DNA of 64,000 nucleotides from Candidatus Poribacteria bacterium (GTDB lineage Bacteria; Poribacteria; WGA-4E; WGA-3G): NCBI GenBank assembly GCA_964291315.2, contig OZ219753.1:1184001-1248000 (forward strand), in the 5' to 3' direction. Positions 42,316 through 50,896 of the stretch are shown here, piece by piece; the stretch's first letter is position 1; each line of letters begins with the position of its first letter. The notes below the pieces were generated by a model. The model was not told the DNA's origin. It ran no database searches and was given only the letters and a program-made list of their open reading frames with translations. The position numbers and the translations under genes are program-made.

Positions 42316-43968
42316 ATGAAAGTCTTTTTTCGGAAATCTACCTATTATTCTCTCCTACTATTTGTATTTGGCTGCTTGACGTTGAATTGCGCGAAGCTTT
42401 CGCCAACGCCCCCGCGGTATGTACCAGCGAGCACCAAACATCTGGATCGGCATATTAACGCAGTACTTAAAAAAGAGAGGATCCAACCGTCTCGGAGATC
42501 GGCGGACGCGGAATTTCTGCGCCGTATCTATCTCGACATGACAGGAACAATCCCGACCCCTGAAAAAGTTCTCGATTTCCTCAAAGACGGTGCATCCAGC
42601 AAACGGCAGAGAGAAATCGATCAACTCTTCCAGAGTGAGGCCTTCGTTGACTATTGGACACGGTTATGGGTGGACTGGTTAATCGGCAAGCGCGGTGATA
42701 ATAACGATTACCGCATCGGATTAATGGCATGGGTGAAGGATGCTCTACAAAAGAATATGCCCTATAACCAATTTGTTCAGGAACTCATCGCGGCTGATGG
42801 GGAGCTACGGAACAATGCTGCAGGGAATTATATCCTCCGTTATAATCGGTCACCGGTTCTTCTTACTTCGCATACCTCGCGTTTCTTTTTAGGCCTCCCC
42901 ATGCAATGTGCCGAGTGCCACGACCATAAAACTGAGGCGTGGCGACAAGAGGACTTCTACGGCATCGCAGCCTTTTTCACAGGTATTGAGCGTAAAAGAA
43001 AGGGATCTATCCAGACAGTGAATATGATAGGTGAAAAGCAAAAGATAGACAATTTTCTCATTACCAACACACCTCAAAAATCTCTGTGGGTAAGAAGGCT
43101 TGATAGTAAGGTCTTTCCTCGTTTCCCTGATGGAACCGAGTACAACGGGAGGCCTGTCAAAAAACGCGAAGCGCTTGCAGAGTGGATAACCGACAAATCG
43201 AATCCGTATTTTAGTCGTGCACTCGTGAATCGGATTTGGAAGCACTTTATGGGCCGCGCATTTGTCGAACCGCTAGACGGATTCGGAGAAGAAAATCTGC
43301 CAACCCACCCAGCTCTATTGGAATGGCTTGCAGACGATTTCGTCATTCACGGATATAACTTGCAACACTTAATGCGGACCATCCTCAATTCTGAGGCTTA
43401 CCAGCGCACGTCAGAGACAAATGAAAGCAACAAAGCGGATGAACTTTACTATTCGCATGCGTACGTCAAACCGCTCAGTGCAGAGCAATTTTTCCATTCC
43501 ATGCTACAAGCCACCGGCTTTGAAAGGCTCCAACAAGTCGAGATGGAAGGTCTCGCAAAGCAAGGTGGCAAAGATCGTAAGGATATGCTGCGCGCTCTGG
43601 AGCAAAGAAAGCGCCAGCACCTCAGGCGGTTTCTGTTTCTCCTAGATAACGGTGAAATGGAGGAAATCGAAGCCTTCAACGGAACCCTCCCGCAAGCTCT
43701 TATGATGATTAATGGAAGTATGGTGAATGATAGCGCGAGTCATGAGAAACGCGGTGGTTTCGTTAATTACGTTCTCGAAAAATGGCGTGAACCGCTTGAC
43801 CGAGTGGAGTACATTTACCTCAACATTCTATCTCGGCTGCCAACGGCTAAAGATAGAACCTATTTCCAACGTTATTTGGAGCGAAGCCTTTATTCAGATA
43901 AAGACTTGGCTTACGAAGACCTCTATTGGGTGTTGTTAAATTCTGCCGAATTTTCTATTAACCATTAA
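42316..43968 (+). CDS. DUF1549/DUF1553 (planctomycete PSCyt/PSD1-type) protein
   Basis: DAEFLRRIYLDMTG, CAECHDH, ALVNRIW.HFMG, HPALL.WLA, PQAL.MIN, LLNSAEF. Confidence 0.9.
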   Translation: MKVFFRKSTYYSLLLFVFGCLTLNCAKLSPTPPRYVPASTKHLDRHINAVLKKERIQPSRRSADAEFLRRIYLDMTGTIPTPEKVLDFLKDGASSKRQREIDQLFQSEAFVDYWTRLWVDWLIGKRGDNNDYRIGLMAWVKDALQKNMPYNQFVQELIAADGELRNNAAGNYILRYNRSPVLLTSHTSRFFLGLPMQCAECHDHKTEAWRQEDFYGIAAFFTGIERKRKGSIQTVNMIGEKQKIDNFLITNTPQKSLWVRRLDSKVFPRFPDGTEYNGRPVKKREALAEWITDKSNPYFSRALVNRIWKHFMGRAFVEPLDGFGEENLPTHPALLEWLADDFVIHGYNLQHLMRTILNSEAYQRTSETNESNKADELYYSHAYVKPLSAEQFFHSMLQATGFERLQQVEMEGLAKQGGKDRKDMLRALEQRKRQHLRRFLFLLDNGEMEEIEAFNGTLPQALMMINGSMVNDSASHEKRGGFVNYVLEKWREPLDRVEYIYLNILSRLPTAKDRTYFQRYLERSLYSDKDLAYEDLYWVLLNSAEFSINH

Positions 43969-43991: not shown

Positions 43992-45038
43992 ATGAACTAT
44001 CGTGACCTGAGGATCGGAGCGTTAAAAGCAGAACTCAAAAAGCGGGGATTGAAAGGGTATTCATCGTTAAAAAAAGCTCAAATGATTGAATATCTTTCAA
44101 CAGGAATTCACCCGCTGAAACAGACAGAAGCATCTCCCATGGTAGCGGAGAGTGAAATGCTCGATTCGTCTCCTGAAGAAACTGAATATTCACCGACTAT
44201 TTTGGAGGGTACCACCCAAAAACTTCCAATCAATCAAGTTATATTGGGGAACTGTTTAAAGATTTTGCGATCTTTTCCTGATGGCGTTTTCGATTGTTGT
44301 ATTGCCGACCCGCCATTTAATATGTCGAGAAAAAAAGGGTTGGGTTGGGCCTTTAGTTCCCATGTTACAATGCAGGAACAGTGGGATATTTTCGCAAAAG
44401 ACGACTATTTTCAGTTCACGGTTGACTGGCTTCGTGAGGTATTAAGGGTGCTGAAGACAAACGGAAACTTGTTTGTTTTTGGGTCTTTCCACTGTATCTT
44501 TACAATCGGTTTTATTCTTCAAAACCTGTTTGACCGCCGAATCATCAGCCAACTAGTTTGGTACAAACCTAATGCACAACCTAATATCACCTGCCGTATG
44601 TTTACCGAATCGACTGAATTTATCGTTTGGGCAGTCAACAATGAAAGCAAAAAGGCCAAAAATTGGACGTTCAATTATGAGGTGATGAAAGGGCTAAACA
44701 ATAACAAACAAATGCGAAATGTGTGGGAGATTCCGCTTACCAAACGATCAGAACGGACGTATGGGAAACATCCGTCACAAAAGCCTGTTGCTGTTGTCAA
44801 TCGGCTTGTCTTAGCGGGAACTCATAAAGGTGATCTCATTCTTGATCCATTCTCTGGGACCGGAACTACAGCGGTTGTGGCTGAACAAAACAGTCGGAGA
44901 TGGGTCATGATTGAAAAGGAAGAAGCGTATAACGAAATTGCGCGACAGAGGCTTGGTGAGTTGGCCAATATGCTGTTTGAAGGTGATTCAGAGACCGATG
45001 AGAAACCTTTTTTCCCTTCACTGCTTGCGGTAGAATAG
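43992..45038 (+). CDS. Orphan beta-class DNA methyltransferase (DpnA/CcrM-like) with N-terminal Rho_N/SAP-like domain
   Basis: DPPF catalytic motif precedes LDPFSGTGTT; HPSQKP; N-terminal LKAELKKRGLKGYSSLKKAQMIEYL. Confidence 0.88.
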   Translation: MNYRDLRIGALKAELKKRGLKGYSSLKKAQMIEYLSTGIHPLKQTEASPMVAESEMLDSSPEETEYSPTILEGTTQKLPINQVILGNCLKILRSFPDGVFDCCIADPPFNMSRKKGLGWAFSSHVTMQEQWDIFAKDDYFQFTVDWLREVLRVLKTNGNLFVFGSFHCIFTIGFILQNLFDRRIISQLVWYKPNAQPNITCRMFTESTEFIVWAVNNESKKAKNWTFNYEVMKGLNNNKQMRNVWEIPLTKRSERTYGKHPSQKPVAVVNRLVLAGTHKGDLILDPFSGTGTTAVVAEQNSRRWVMIEKEEAYNEIARQRLGELANMLFEGDSETDEKPFFPSLLAVE

Positions 45039-47127: not shown

Positions 47128-47151
47128 GTAGCATAGACTGTTAGTCTGTGC
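47128..47151 (+). repeat. GTAG-type REP-like palindrome
   Basis: GTAGCATAGACT-GTT-AGTCTGTGC; related copies at 48231, 48358(-), 48403, 50762 and 50873(-). Confidence 0.6.
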
Positions 47152-47250: not shown

Positions 47251-48135
47251 ATGAAAACGTATTTGAGGATCCCGAAACTTATGATTGCGGCGCTTGCTAT
47301 CGGCGCATGCTGCTTCGTTTTCTACGCCTGTGAGGTTGTAGATATTGGCGTTGTCACTAGCCCGTTGCAGGAGACTCCTGCTCCGCCAGAGAACATGGTG
47401 TTAATTCCTGCGGGGGAGTTTCAGATGGGTAGCAACGATGCAGATTCTCGCGCGGATGAGCAGCCCATCCATACCGTCTCTGTAGACGCGTTTTATATGG
47501 ATACGCACGAAGTGACAAACGCAGAATATGCGGCGTTTCTGAATGCCTGGGGCAACGATGATTGGTCTGATATCAACGCCGATGGGGCGCGCATTGAGCT
47601 TGTAGCAGGCATGTATCGGCCCGTGTCGGGGTACGCGGATCATCCGGTTGTTGAGGTGAGTTGGTATGGCGCGATGGCGTATGCGGAGTGGGCAGATAAA
47701 CGGCTGCCGACCGAAGCGGAGTGGGAATATGCCGCACGCGGCGGACTATCGGGCCAGAAATATCCGTGGGGCGACACGATTGATAGCACACACGCCAACT
47801 ACGCCGGCAATGCCGGTAGTACGACAGCGGTAGGCAGTTATGCAGCGAATGGGTACGGTTTGCATGATATGGCGGGGAACGTCTACGAATGGTGCTTAGA
47901 TGCGTATGACGAGGAGTTCTACGCCACCTCTCCTGCTCGGAATCCGCTGTCGGGTGCACCCAATATTAAGTGGTTATCAGACAACTATGAAGAAGTTAAT
48001 TCTGACCGCGTGTTACGTGGCGGTTCCTGGCCCAATACTGCCCGGGACGTGCGGGTCGCCGCTCGCGGCCTCAATGCGCCGTCGGTCACGGATGTCTTCT
48101 TCGGTTTCCGTTGTGTCAGGTCTGTATCCCCTTGA
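47251..48135 (+). CDS. FGE-sulfatase/SUMF1-fold (C-type lectin) lipoprotein, probable DGR target
   Basis: AAGGAG RBS, lipobox-like FYAC, MVLIPAGEFQMGS, RLPTEAEWEYAARGG, GLHDMAGNVYEW, RGGSW...GFRC; lacks the catalytic FGE cysteine pair. Confidence 0.88.
   Translation: MKTYLRIPKLMIAALAIGACCFVFYACEVVDIGVVTSPLQETPAPPENMVLIPAGEFQMGSNDADSRADEQPIHTVSVDAFYMDTHEVTNAEYAAFLNAWGNDDWSDINADGARIELVAGMYRPVSGYADHPVVEVSWYGAMAYAEWADKRLPTEAEWEYAARGGLSGQKYPWGDTIDSTHANYAGNAGSTTAVGSYAANGYGLHDMAGNVYEWCLDAYDEEFYATSPARNPLSGAPNIKWLSDNYEEVNSDRVLRGGSWPNTARDVRVAARGLNAPSVTDVFFGFRCVRSVSP
48007..48135 (+). repeat. Putative DGR variable repeat VR1
   Basis: Aligns with 49679-49804 and 50519-50656; differences concentrate at codon positions 1-2 of NNC/NNT and position 1 of NCG. 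Confidence 0.7.
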
Positions 48136-48426
48136 ATCTTTACTGTTTAACGCATTTTTCTTCTTAGGTTGTGCCGCAGCAGTCCCCGTGGCACAACCTG
48201 CTGAGGGGTGCCTTGTAGCATAGTCCCCTTGTAGCATAACCTGTTAGGTTGTGCATTGTATCATGTTGCTTGTAAGGATTTACTTGTAATGTGAGTTGGG
48301 TGATAAGCACCGAAGAGGCACAGGAAACTAACAGCCTACGATACAAGAACTGAAGAGGCACAGACTATCAGCCTATGCTACAAGAACATAAAGGATTTAC
48401 TTGTGGCATAACCTGTTAGGTTGTGC
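48136..48426 (+). repeat. Conserved post-VR segment with hairpin (48166-48199) and REP-like cluster
   Basis: Near-identical to 50657-50785; AGGTTGTGCC...GGCACAACCT stem; repeated ATAACCTGTTAGGTTGTGC. Confidence 0.7.
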
Positions 48427-48451
48427 ATTCTATCAAATATATTAAATATAA

Positions 48452-50656
48452 ATGAAAAAAAGTAGAAATGGTATGAGAAGAACATTGTTCGTTCTGTCTA
48501 TTTTGGCGGTGCTGGTGTTTTCGGTTGCTCAGTTAGCAGCGGCGCAATGGAAGGCGAACCAAGTAACGAATCAGACAGATGAGAATGTAGATGTGATCCA
48601 TTCGACGTGGCGGCCTGCGAAAGAAGATATTCCGAACGGATTTCGGACGCGCGGGCATTATCGCCTGGCTCCGGGTGAGACTCGGCAATTTTATGCGTGG
48701 TCAGACAACAGCATCTATTTCCGCATCTTGCGTTCGGGTGAGGCGATAAAACCGAACGTTGATAAGGTGACGTTTAGTTTTTGGGTTCATCCGTCTCGTT
48801 CGTTTATGATAGTCTCGGACGAGCTGAGTGCTGCCGTGAAGTTTTCTGATTTGAGTTATGTGAATCGTTCTCGCGAGGGTTTTGTTCGTGAGGATGGTTT
48901 TATGAAGTATTCGAATGGCTCTGTTGTGAATATCACGTCTGGCTGGGTGTCCGTAGTTCCGGATGCGCCGGGTGCTGGCGATGGTGTGGGTCCTGGTGCT
49001 ACGACTACCCCTACGCCGCCGCAGGAGTCTCCTGCTCCGCCCGAGGGCATGGTGTTGATCCCTGCGGGCGAGTTTGAGATGGGCAGCAACGATGCAGATT
49101 CTTACTGGGATAAGCCGCACATTCATACTGTCTACGTGGATGCGTTTTATATGGACACACATGAAGTGACGAACGCAGACTTCCAGCGATTTGTGTTGGC
49201 GAACCCACAGTGGCAGAAGAGCCGGATTCCGGACAACTTGCACGGCGGAAACTACCTGAGGCATTGGGATGATTTTAATAACTATCCTGCGGGCAAGGCG
49301 AACCATCCTGTGGTTTGGGTGAGTTGGTATGGTGCAGTGGCGTATGCGAAGTGGGCAGGCAAGCGGCTCCCCACAGAGGCGGAGTGGGAGAAAGCCGCAC
49401 GCGGCGGCAAGTCGGGGCTAAAGTATCCCTGGGGAAACACGATTAGCCATACGCACGCGAACTACGGCAATAATGTCGGTGGGACGACGGCAGTGGGTGC
49501 GTATCCAGCGAATGGGTATGGTCTCTATGATATGGCCGGGAATGTCTACGAGTGGTGTCTGGATGCGTATGACGGGAACTTCTATGTTCGGTCCCCTGCT
49601 CGTAACCCCGTATCGGACGTGAATACACTGTCCAATATATTCCTAATATTAAATAATTACACCCAAATTAAGATGTCCCGCGTCTTTCGTGGCGGCAACT
49701 GCTACGATACAGCACAGGACGTGCGGGTCGCCCACCGCAACGCCTATTCGCCGCCGGCCTCGAACTCCGGCCTCGGGTTCCGTTGTGCGAGGTCCGTATC
49801 CCCTTCGGATGCTGGTGATGGTGTAGGTACTGGTGCTACTCCTCCTGTGCCTAGTGTCACCCCGCCGTCGCCGGAGGCTGCTGCTGCGCCCGAAGGCATG
49901 GTGTTAATTCCTGCGGGTGAGTTTGAGATGGGCAGCAACGATGCAGATTCTTACCCGGATGAGCAGCCCGTCCATACCGTCTACGTAGATGCGTTTTACA
50001 TGGACACACATGAAGTGACGAACGCGGAATTCAAGCGTTTTGTGTTGGCGAACCCACAGTGGCAGAAGAGCCGTATGCCGCACAACTTACACAATCAGTT
50101 CTACCTATTTCGGTGGAGTAGTCCTCCCAACTATCCTCGGCGCGAGGCGAACCATCCTGTTGCTGGGGTGTTTTGGCATGCTGCCGTGGCGTATGCGAAG
50201 TGGGCAGGCAAACGGCTCCCCACAGAGGCGGAGTGGGAGAAAGCTGCACGCGGTGGCAAGTCGGGGCTAAAGTATCCCTGGGGAAACACGATTAGCCGCA
50301 CGCGTGCGAACTACGGCGGATATCTCGGTGGAACGTATACAGTGGGTAGATATCCTGCGAATGGGTATGGTCTCTATGATATGGTGGGGAATGTCTGGGA
50401 GTGGTGTCTGGATGCGTATGACAAAAACTTCTATACCATTTCACCTACTTCTAATCCGCTATCGGGTGCGTCTAGTATTCAGTGGCTATTAGCTAATTAT
50501 GCAGAGATTAAGACTAAACGCGTCTTGCGTGGCGGCTCCTGGAGCGATCTATTCTCTGCGGAGCGGAAGGCGCGGGTTGCCTACCGCTTCGGCGGTACGC
50601 CTACGGGCGCGCACTACCTCCGCGGGTTCCGTTGCGCAAAGTCTGTATCCCCTTGA
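48452..50656 (+). CDS. Secreted protein with N-terminal beta domain and two tandem FGE/C-type-lectin domains, probable DGR target
   Basis: Signal peptide; two near-identical PEGMVLIPAGEFEMGS...RLPTEAEWEKAARGG...GFRC.SVSP units separated by Pro/Thr linkers. Confidence 0.88.
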   Translation: MKKSRNGMRRTLFVLSILAVLVFSVAQLAAAQWKANQVTNQTDENVDVIHSTWRPAKEDIPNGFRTRGHYRLAPGETRQFYAWSDNSIYFRILRSGEAIKPNVDKVTFSFWVHPSRSFMIVSDELSAAVKFSDLSYVNRSREGFVREDGFMKYSNGSVVNITSGWVSVVPDAPGAGDGVGPGATTTPTPPQESPAPPEGMVLIPAGEFEMGSNDADSYWDKPHIHTVYVDAFYMDTHEVTNADFQRFVLANPQWQKSRIPDNLHGGNYLRHWDDFNNYPAGKANHPVVWVSWYGAVAYAKWAGKRLPTEAEWEKAARGGKSGLKYPWGNTISHTHANYGNNVGGTTAVGAYPANGYGLYDMAGNVYEWCLDAYDGNFYVRSPARNPVSDVNTLSNIFLILNNYTQIKMSRVFRGGNCYDTAQDVRVAHRNAYSPPASNSGLGFRCARSVSPSDAGDGVGTGATPPVPSVTPPSPEAAAAPEGMVLIPAGEFEMGSNDADSYPDEQPVHTVYVDAFYMDTHEVTNAEFKRFVLANPQWQKSRMPHNLHNQFYLFRWSSPPNYPRREANHPVAGVFWHAAVAYAKWAGKRLPTEAEWEKAARGGKSGLKYPWGNTISRTRANYGGYLGGTYTVGRYPANGYGLYDMVGNVWEWCLDAYDKNFYTISPTSNPLSGASSIQWLLANYAEIKTKRVLRGGSWSDLFSAERKARVAYRFGGTPTGAHYLRGFRCAKSVSP
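49679..49804 (+). repeat. Putative DGR variable repeat VR2 (internal to gene)
   Basis: Same A-position-biased divergence relative to VR1 and VR3. Confidence 0.65.
50519..50656 (+). repeat. Putative DGR variable repeat VR3
   Basis: Same pattern, with a 3-codon insertion after GGSW; ends TCTGTATCCCCTTGA like VR1. Confidence 0.65.
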
Positions 50657-50896
50657 ATCTTTACTGTTTAACGCATTTCACTCCATTTTTCTTGTTAGGT
50701 TGTGCTGCAGCAGTCCTCGTAGCACAACCTGCTGAGGGGTGCCTTGTACTACAGTCCCCTTGTGTCATAACCTGTTAGGTTGTGCCTCCCCTCATAGTTT
50801 AAGGTGTCCAATTTGTGAGTTGATACTCAATCGCACAGGAAACCGACAGCCTATGCTACAAGCGTCGAAGAAGCACAGACTGGCAGTCTATGCTAC
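50657..50896 (+). repeat. Conserved post-VR segment with hairpin (50697-50730) and REP-like cluster
   Basis: AGGTTGTGCT...AGCACAACCT stem; GCACAGACTGGCAGTCTATGCTAC at 50873-50896. Confidence 0.7.

Follow-up and report, generated by a model that had tools for sequence, protein, structure and literature searches.

The stem-loop that follows each of two tandem FGE-sulfatase genes (here termed genes A and B) in a 64,000-nucleotide stretch of a Candidatus Poribacteria genome is best explained, with a probability of roughly 0.7, as the incidental junction of two adjacent repetitive extragenic palindromic (REP)-like units and not as a purpose-built targeting signal of a diversity-generating retroelement (DGR). 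The stem would accordingly have no dedicated role in retrohoming. Here, the stretch, referred to as the window, corresponds to C4:1184001-1248000 of a 4.4-Mb assembly that consists of 4 contigs and is 95.2% complete; positions without a contig prefix are those of the window. A preliminary description of this DNA had proposed that REP-derived palindromes were co-opted as the hairpin by which the DGR recognizes its targets. Co-option of this kind is not supported, and is disfavored because the stem is of generic origin and has a long loop and modest GC content, the two copies differ by 10 nt in spacing, relatives lack the hairpin, and some template-consistent regions have no hairpin. The genes and stem-loops concerned are the following.

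47251-48135, + strand: gene A, single-domain FGE-sulfatase (C-type lectin fold) of 294 aa; Pfam PF03781, E 3.8e-67, residues 47-290
48452-50656, + strand: gene B, 734 aa, two FGE-sulfatase domains; Pfam PF03781, 2 stretches, E 1.5e-122
48166-48199, + strand: hairpin of gene A; 10 Watson-Crick pairs (12 in the minimum-free-energy (MFE) fold), loop of 14 nt (10 in the MFE fold)
50697-50730, + strand: hairpin of gene B, the second copy, 10 nt farther from the stop codon than that of gene A

Both hairpins were recovered within the MFE fold, as the preliminary description had them, together with its exchange of a C-G pair in gene A (48175/48190) for a T-A pair in gene B. Folding of 46-nt pieces gave -11.9 kcal/mol (z -3.9) for A and -11.1 kcal/mol (z -3.6) for B. 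The stem length of 10 bp is inside the range of 7-10 bp published for hairpins of the BPP-1 type, and GC content is modest, with GC pairs at 6/10 positions in A and 5/10 in B. The hairpins start 45 nt (A) and 55 nt (B) past the end of the variable region (VR).

The arms of both stems can be traced to a repeat family of this genome. The pattern GT[AG]GCA[TC]A, followed by 10-12 nt and [TG]GTGC, gave 72 matches in 54 clusters, compared with 4 matches in the reversed genome. The unit is a 9-bp palindrome with covarying inner pairs: at position 9/19, 41 units have GC and 15 have AT (59/68 paired), and at position 10/18, 34 have AT, 15 CG and 5 GC (60/68 paired), positions 4-8 and 20-24 being fixed by the search pattern and hence uninformative on covariation. 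The unit was matched in 24/24 sampled genomes of the genus and in 2/16 from other families of the order. Around genes A and B, the following units were identified.

47128-47151, + strand (C4:1231128-1231151): REP-like unit upstream of gene A; its 3' flank, CGCAGCAGTC, is shared with the truncated unit in the tail
48164-48174, + strand: 5'-truncated REP-like unit, of which, by comparison with the family consensus, only the loop and 3' arm are left; gives the 5' arm of the hairpin
48188-48211, + strand (C4:1232188-1232211): decayed REP-like unit with a GTGG head, whose internal stem has mostly lost its pairing; contributes its 5' arm to the hairpin as the 3' arm
48231-48254, + strand: intact REP-like unit of a minor subfamily, with its own hairpin in the MFE fold
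48358-48381, - strand: inverted REP-like unit in the A-B spacer (pattern match)
48403-48426, + strand: REP-like unit in the A-B spacer (pattern match)
50719-50742, + strand: decayed REP-like unit (GTAG head), counterpart of 48188-48211
50873-50896, - strand: inverted REP-like unit downstream of gene B (pattern match)

The tail of gene A is therefore ordered as truncated unit, spacer of 11-13 nt, decayed unit, head fragment and intact unit, and that of gene B is built in the same way. Both hairpin arms lie inside pattern matches or the truncated unit. Given that the REP unit is palindromic, two consecutive units in direct orientation can pair with each other, the 3' arm of the first with the 5' arm of the second, and it is in this manner that the truncated unit pairs with its same-orientation neighbor. 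The earlier statement that the stem arms are halves of REP units was thus confirmed, the 5' arm being the 3' half of one unit and the 3' arm the 5' half of the next. Since the first unit lacks its 5' half and the second its internal pairing, the inter-unit stem wins.

Stems of this build are not confined to FGE genes. A search for the junction-stem build returned 22 rows and none in the control; 4 of these rows represent the two hairpins on both strands, and the other 18 junction stems usually span 28-34 nt, like the A/B hairpins. The observation that 15/18 lie >3 kb from any FGE domain removes, in essence, the specificity for FGE ends that a target-recognition hairpin would be expected to have. 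The exact hairpin, with <=3 mismatches allowed, was found in 0/64 other genomes of the genus, and the hairpin part of the query matched just the two copies in this genome among the matches listed for the genus and order sample. An FGE end joined to a REP arm was likewise found in 0/64 congeners, a comparison of low power given that the stricter FGE end occurs in just 3/64. The A and B hairpins themselves descend from one duplication and therefore amount to one observation.

A link between the repeat family and a REP-associated tyrosine transposase (RAYT) was tried and not found. No match to the Y1 transposase (PF01797) was obtained in this genome at its 95.2% completeness; Y1_Tnp matches occur in 64/64 congeners, and convincing flanking REP units were seen at 0/8 sampled genes. 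As a separate observation, this genome, called the smallest of the genus sample (4.4 Mb versus 4.3-6.7 Mb), is the sole one of 65 without Y1_Tnp of the IS200/IS605 or RAYT type, yet it has kept the REP-like family.

Genes A and B do carry DGR-type variable regions, as had been claimed, with adenine-specific differences from a template. The DGR setting invoked earlier holds for the genome, which has reverse transcriptase (RT), Avd and template, and not for the window, where no RT was found, the genome's only two RVT_1 matches sitting elsewhere. The cassette lies on contig C3 and comprises, in order, an FGE target gene, Avd, RT and an AAC-rich template (118 nt, 34 adenines). This Avd matched NF033474 at 112.7 bits (cut-off 80) and also bAvd PF22296, and the RT is 352 aa long. 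A second Avd-RT pair, 99% identical, was located at C4:494812-496211, on the window's own contig and ∼736 kb from the window; tblastn gave two copies each of Avd and RT in the genome.

Variable regions were scored against the 118-nt C3 template, with the core defined as template positions 25-100 (32 A, 44 non-A). The genome has 67 PF03781 matches, of which 64 reached the profile end and were scored; truncated matches (C3:224701, C4:2224816 and C4:344625) were left out. Genes A and B are tandem paralogues in this large family. In the window, the PF03781 matches end at 48120, 49792 and 50641, i.e. the C-terminal end of the lectin/FGE fold carries the variable regions.

48003-48120 (core 48027-48102), + strand: gene A variable region; core mismatches 24/32 A versus 2/44 non-A (Fisher p 6.6e-11), whole length 25/34 versus 10/84
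49675-49792, + strand: internal variable region in domain 1 of gene B; core mismatches 19/32 A versus 1/44 non-A; followed by an in-frame linker with no stop, tail or hairpin
50515-50641, + strand: terminal variable region in domain 2 of gene B; core mismatches 23/32 A versus 4/44 non-A; 9-nt insertion relative to the template (counted by eye)

The adenine bias was significant in all three regions (Fisher p <=1.4e-8 each) and was not seen in distant FGE paralogues (for example, 14/29 A versus 14/40 non-A). Given that the window regions differ from the template chiefly at adenines, the C3 template or its ancestor was the source of all three. Over the whole length, non-adenine mismatches amounted to 10/84 in gene A, 7/84 in domain 1 of gene B and 13/84 in domain 2, including 3-4 differences within the last 18 nt beside the putative initiation of mutagenic homing (IMH) site. 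Because of these differences, the sequences argue for homing that would be rare or past. However, non-adenine differences and indels are described in DGR targets regarded as active (PMC5758913), so that such departures make current activity of the window regions less likely only.

Throughout the genome, core non-adenine mismatches number 0 in six regions, 1 in five (including domain 1 of gene B), 2 in gene A and 4 in domain 2 of gene B, and core adenine mismatches across these regions span 13-24 of 32. The template-consistent regions are scattered over three contigs. Two of the six regions with 0/44 core mismatches at non-adenines are internal and hairpin-less, and three regions without a hairpin (domain 1 of gene B, C4:499874 and C4:496208) are template-consistent as much as or more than the hairpin-bearing regions. 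For the hairpin-less internal regions, the fold of the linker did not stand out from those of shuffled sequence (z -1.9 for domain 1 of gene B and -0.4). The expectation that only paralogues with the hairpin would be variable was therefore contradicted at the level of fixed differences, as distinct from reads. The reads were represented by short Logan contigs from 4 runs of one study, none of them recorded as RNA, with 137-821 short pieces per run at 80% likeness and paralogues mixed in on the conserved core. Loose ends at 50542 (5 in X1 and 3 in X3) may be paralogues or repeat artefacts, and an X4 contig of 2048 nt matches 47703-48137 and is unlike the window thereafter.

Further observations were made on the DGR loci. 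The second cassette (C4:496208-497914; L001:2343-3642) is without a clean template: the first half corresponds to the C3 template, the second half is diversified (14/34 adenines and 0/84 other positions changed), and the chimera reads on in frame into a two-domain FGE gene. From its sequence, it looks as if template and variable region had recombined. Just downstream of the intact template, two tandem FGE genes (C3:29328-30071 and C3:30466-31215, - strand) have identical variable-region patterns with 20 adenine changes and 1 other change each, which points to a very recent duplication without later diversification or to an assembly repeat.

The tail that joins the variable regions to the hairpins was compared between the two genes. 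Both end TCTGTATCCCCTTGA, and they are identical over 37 nt.

48121-48157, + strand: identical 37 nt, gene A copy; codons S-V-S-P and the stop (48133-48135), then an IMH-type flank of 22 non-coding nt with homology to that of the cassette-adjacent targets
50642-50678, + strand: identical 37 nt, gene B copy; end and flank the same as at 48121-48157

Over 119 aligned columns, 48136-48254 and 50657-50785 differ by 9 substitutions (92.4% identity), and a single indel of 10 nt separates them further. The shared gene ends and near-identical flanks reported in the preliminary description are thus present, as is the divergence upstream of them: identity between gene A and domain 2 of gene B is 38-88% per 60-column window in the coding parts and 57% in the variable region.

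Not all of this tail is informative with regard to an IMH. The first 15 nt encode S-V-S-P-stop, are common to many paralogues and, without the stop, form internal domain linkers from the same codons; this part of the proposed IMH-like tail is merely the last four codons and the stop. The flank is another matter, being homologous to the post-VR flank of the cassette-adjacent cognate (31/41 and 32/41 nt identical over its 41-nt post-VR stretch). A flank consensus read by eye, TCTGTATCNCCNTRA-TCTT-AC-N-TTAAC, is present in FGE genes of five species of the genus. It is fair to call the tail IMH-like, an IMH function would be a reasonable reading, and the ∼25-nt non-coding flank is plausibly the target-specific part of the IMH. 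The template repeat (TR) and VR have GGTTTTCGTTGTGCGA(A/G)G in common and then part ways, and the 3' flank of the template diverges immediately past GCGAAG, where it carries a 12-nt insert with a small stem of its own (by eye). Comparison with the 3' end of the template (IMH*) thus revealed an unmutated VR flank distinct from that of the template.

Other lines of evidence on the tail were set aside or negative. Among terminal FGE genes (n=38), tail similarity and template consistency gave a Spearman coefficient of -0.60, a correlation that was dropped as evidence because closer paralogues have both properties. The exact 21-nt tail had no match in metagenome_contigs or genome_contigs. A pattern of tail plus REP arm gave 0 matches in genome_contigs and 1 in metagenome_contigs (L033), the latter being a chance match with no FGE gene upstream.

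A hairpin of a different type stands behind the targets next to the cassette. At both cassette-adjacent targets, a stem of 11 bp, 9 of them GC, closes a loop of 3 nt and is located ∼40 nt past the VR end. The core CCTGC-NNN-GCAGG was found behind an FGE end at three places in this genome and in 3/64 congeners; one of the congener loci continues with Avd and RT, and two are without these within 1.5 kb. In the post-VR flank alignment, the canonical stems differ by paired changes between species, and the canonical hairpin follows in 5/9 rows, with a truncated REP unit in the two window rows. On this comparison, the lineage has its own conserved post-VR hairpin, of another type than the A/B hairpin, which speaks against the latter as a co-opted version; in addition, a loop of 10-14 nt is far outside the working size described for BPP-1 (PMC3240598).

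At C3:227224-227330, after the third target gene (C3:226477-227223), the canonical hairpin is followed by a spacer and the first ∼25 nt of avd, with no full avd or RT behind; this segment is a partial copy of the 5' part of the cassette. A second repeat was also noted, a 43-nt palindrome composed of GGGCGTGATAGC, ∼19 nt and GCTATCACGCCC, which occurs at 20 places (e.g. C4:774763-774805, C4:777195-777237 and C3:31524-31566) and at 0 in the control. Eighteen of these 20 copies are no farther than 351 nt from the end of an FGE domain, in most cases 79-84 nt beyond it, and one is found ∼170 nt behind the DGR template. A T-rich run usually comes next, and the element, which is absent behind the two window genes, probably represents an intrinsic terminator specific to the family and passed on with the paralogues.

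The arrangement at genes A and B can be described by the following model. The C-terminal lectin-fold loops of both genes were written by the distant DGR. Behind them, the tail consists of three layers: 15 coding nt (S-V-S-P-stop), ∼25 nt of non-coding flank inherited from an ancestral target gene, and a REP-like array copied along with the gene when the locus was duplicated. The array appears to occupy the place of the canonical hairpin, which it may have displaced.

Several observations weigh against regarding the hairpin as an incidental junction. The stem is cleaner than a typical junction, with ten perfect Watson-Crick pairs, which arise because the second unit has C where the family has T (65/68 units). 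The extra pair outside the REP core is the very one changed on both sides, and it forms in ∼2/12 other major-subfamily junctions, by reading of the rows. When 9 substitutions were placed at random on 119 columns (200,000 trials), a double-changed, still-pairing pair arose in 2.7% of trials and one with the stem also intact in 1.3%. The offset of 45 or 55 nt from the VR end is near the canonical ∼40 nt, and a model in which the stem-loop keeps the target open (PMC12875486), as that report proposes, implies that any stable hairpin might serve. REP units are enriched near FGE domains, with 22/72 within 3 kb compared with 5.9% of random points, although the 72 matches represent 54 clusters and the window locus alone supplies 7/22. 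Finally, the 92% identity of the tail exceeds that of every A/B coding window (88% at most), so that either constraint or recent gene conversion is needed. As to the paired exchange, a departure beyond chance is suggestive, and it concerns a single pair in the two copies of one duplicated sequence; the G/A half of this pair falls on the third base of the GT[AG]G head, where 62/68 units have A and 6/68 have G.

Two alternatives concern the history of the locus, each less probable than the junction reading. A possible though doubtful explanation is that REP invasion replaced the canonical hairpin and disabled the targets, the terminal regions having since been rewritten rarely or never and drifting. 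Consistent with this, the flank remains homologous to those of the cognate and of four other species as far as about TTAAC-N-TT, beyond which the window rows continue with truncated REP; the terminal regions have 2 and 4 of 44 core non-adenine mismatches versus 0 in six other regions, and the 9-nt insertion in domain 2 of gene B and the 3-4 non-adenine differences by the IMH point the same way. By contrast, no remnant of the canonical hairpin is visible, and hairpin-less domain 1 of gene B is nearly template-perfect in its core, which suggests that a hairpin is not required here. Moreover, a clear inverted repeat is listed for only 127/372 DGRs in PMC5758913, the survey that also records non-adenine differences and indels in active-deemed targets.

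It is equally tentative to attribute the tail identity to recent gene conversion or unequal exchange between REP-rich spacers, with no selection on IMH or hairpin. REP arrays are classic recombination substrates. The contrast between a 92% tail and coding windows of 38-88% would fit such an event, as would homology that spans the whole spacer with its inverted REP units, and in two runs one contig each joins 48256 to 50833, the short side being 27 nt and such joins often a repeat artefact. Against this, the identity starts sharply at the end of TR/VR homology (48121), and the first ∼33 nt are conserved in five species, which points to constraint at least there.

Somewhat less likely again is a role in RNA, in which the REP array would serve as a 3' mRNA stabilizer or transcription barrier between genes A and B and the hairpin as an RNA structure. 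REP sequences act in E. coli mRNA decay. The intergenic 3' position on the sense strand agrees with such a role, and G-T pairs at position 7/21 (65/68 units) favor folding of the + strand as written. However, a terminator scan gave none at the hairpin, and an Rfam search gave no match at E <=1.

An improbable reading is that the REP-derived inverted repeat was recruited as a DNA hairpin that makes genes A and B efficient remote DGR targets in place of the usual GC-rich hairpin. The perfect stem of 10 bp (12 in the MFE fold) at a canonical-like offset, the compensatory exchange with its chance of 1.3-2.7% and the strong adenine signature of both hairpin-bearing variable regions would favor it, as would the need in BPP-1 for stem structure and not stem sequence (PMC3240598) and the latitude that the 'open state' model gives to any stable hairpin (PMC12875486). 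These points are offset by the loop, since enlarging the 4-nt BPP-1 loop by 2 nt is described as giving near-background activity (PMC3240598), by GC in just 5-6/10 stem pairs, by tail-hairpin spacings that are 10 nt apart, by the same build at 15 sites >3 kb from any FGE domain, by the 0/64 congeners with the hairpin, by two copies that duplicate a single event, and by hairpin-bearing regions that drift more at non-adenines than hairpin-less ones, one of them with a 9-nt insertion. Least probable of all is the fullest form of this idea, in which a REP palindrome replaced the canonical GC-rich hairpin and the inter-unit stem, sharpened and compensated, holds the duplicated remote targets open for cDNA integration.

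Known systems offer points of comparison. In BPP-1-type hairpins, stems of 7-10 bp are GC-rich and loops are 4-nt GRNA, with a 2-nt loop enlargement leaving them nearly inactive (PMC3240598); hairpin deletion is reported to impair and not to abolish homing, and a 2026 study proposed that the stem-loop keeps the target open (both PMC12875486). Genes A and B resemble the BPP-1 DGR in having variable regions at the 3' end of a lectin-fold gene, adenine-specific template differences, a non-mutated flank past the TR/VR homology and an inverted repeat a few tens of nt on. They differ from it in the loop of 10-14 nt, the 5-6/10 GC pairs, the origin in a genome-wide repeat and the two spacings, whereas the 11-bp GC-rich stem and 3-nt loop of the cassette-adjacent targets of this genome fit the BPP-1 layout well. 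In the survey of Wu et al. (PMC5758913), FGE-sulfatase targets account for 71/372 DGRs, a clear inverted repeat is given for 127/372, and ten DGRs have 29 targets >100 kb away. The chromosomal FGE-sulfatase DGRs described there with remote or multi-domain targets (Treponema TvpA type) share with the present system internal regions with a coding-constrained IMH; unlike them, this genome has template-consistent regions on three contigs, one chimeric template and several non-adenine differences in the window copies.

The repeat units have parallels in the REP and bacterial interspersed mosaic elements (BIMEs) of Enterobacteria and Pseudomonas, with which they share a short imperfect palindrome, a GT[AG]G head, tens of apparently intergenic copies, direct and inverted clusters, a covarying inner stem and genus-wide presence; unlike these, they are found in a genome with no Y1 transposase. 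REP sequences are defined by a GTAG head. A literature search joining 'diversity-generating retroelement' with 'repetitive extragenic palindromic' returned nothing on such a link, as judged by title or the start of the abstract.

With respect to the surroundings, an iron alcohol dehydrogenase gene lies upstream of the A/B pair and a beta-propeller gene downstream on the opposite strand. A PSCyt2/PSD1 (DUF1549/DUF1553) protein and an N6/N4 DNA methylase are encoded at 42316-43968 and 43992-45038, a few kb upstream of the FGE pair, with no link to the hairpin or tail seen. In the protein collection, the gene A protein is alone in its 90% cluster, with <=68% identity to the next relative; a homologue of 63% identity is NCBI-named Candidatus Poribacteria bacterium.

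If a REP palindrome had replaced the canonical hairpin, genome-wide repeats could create or maintain new DGR targets, and, had co-option taken place, the hairpin requirement of DGRs would be generic enough for an unrelated repeat to satisfy, with a bearing on how remote targets are acquired. Tandem REP units always offer an inter-unit stem, and for this reason a stem-loop downstream of duplicated genes, even with a single 'covarying' pair, lends little support to a dedicated element. The locus belongs to two known kinds, remote FGE-sulfatase DGR targets and a genus-wide REP-like family, and adds to both. It brings two further genes with three variable regions to the targets of a chromosomal DGR, which writes into many FGE-sulfatase paralogues located far away from its cassette.

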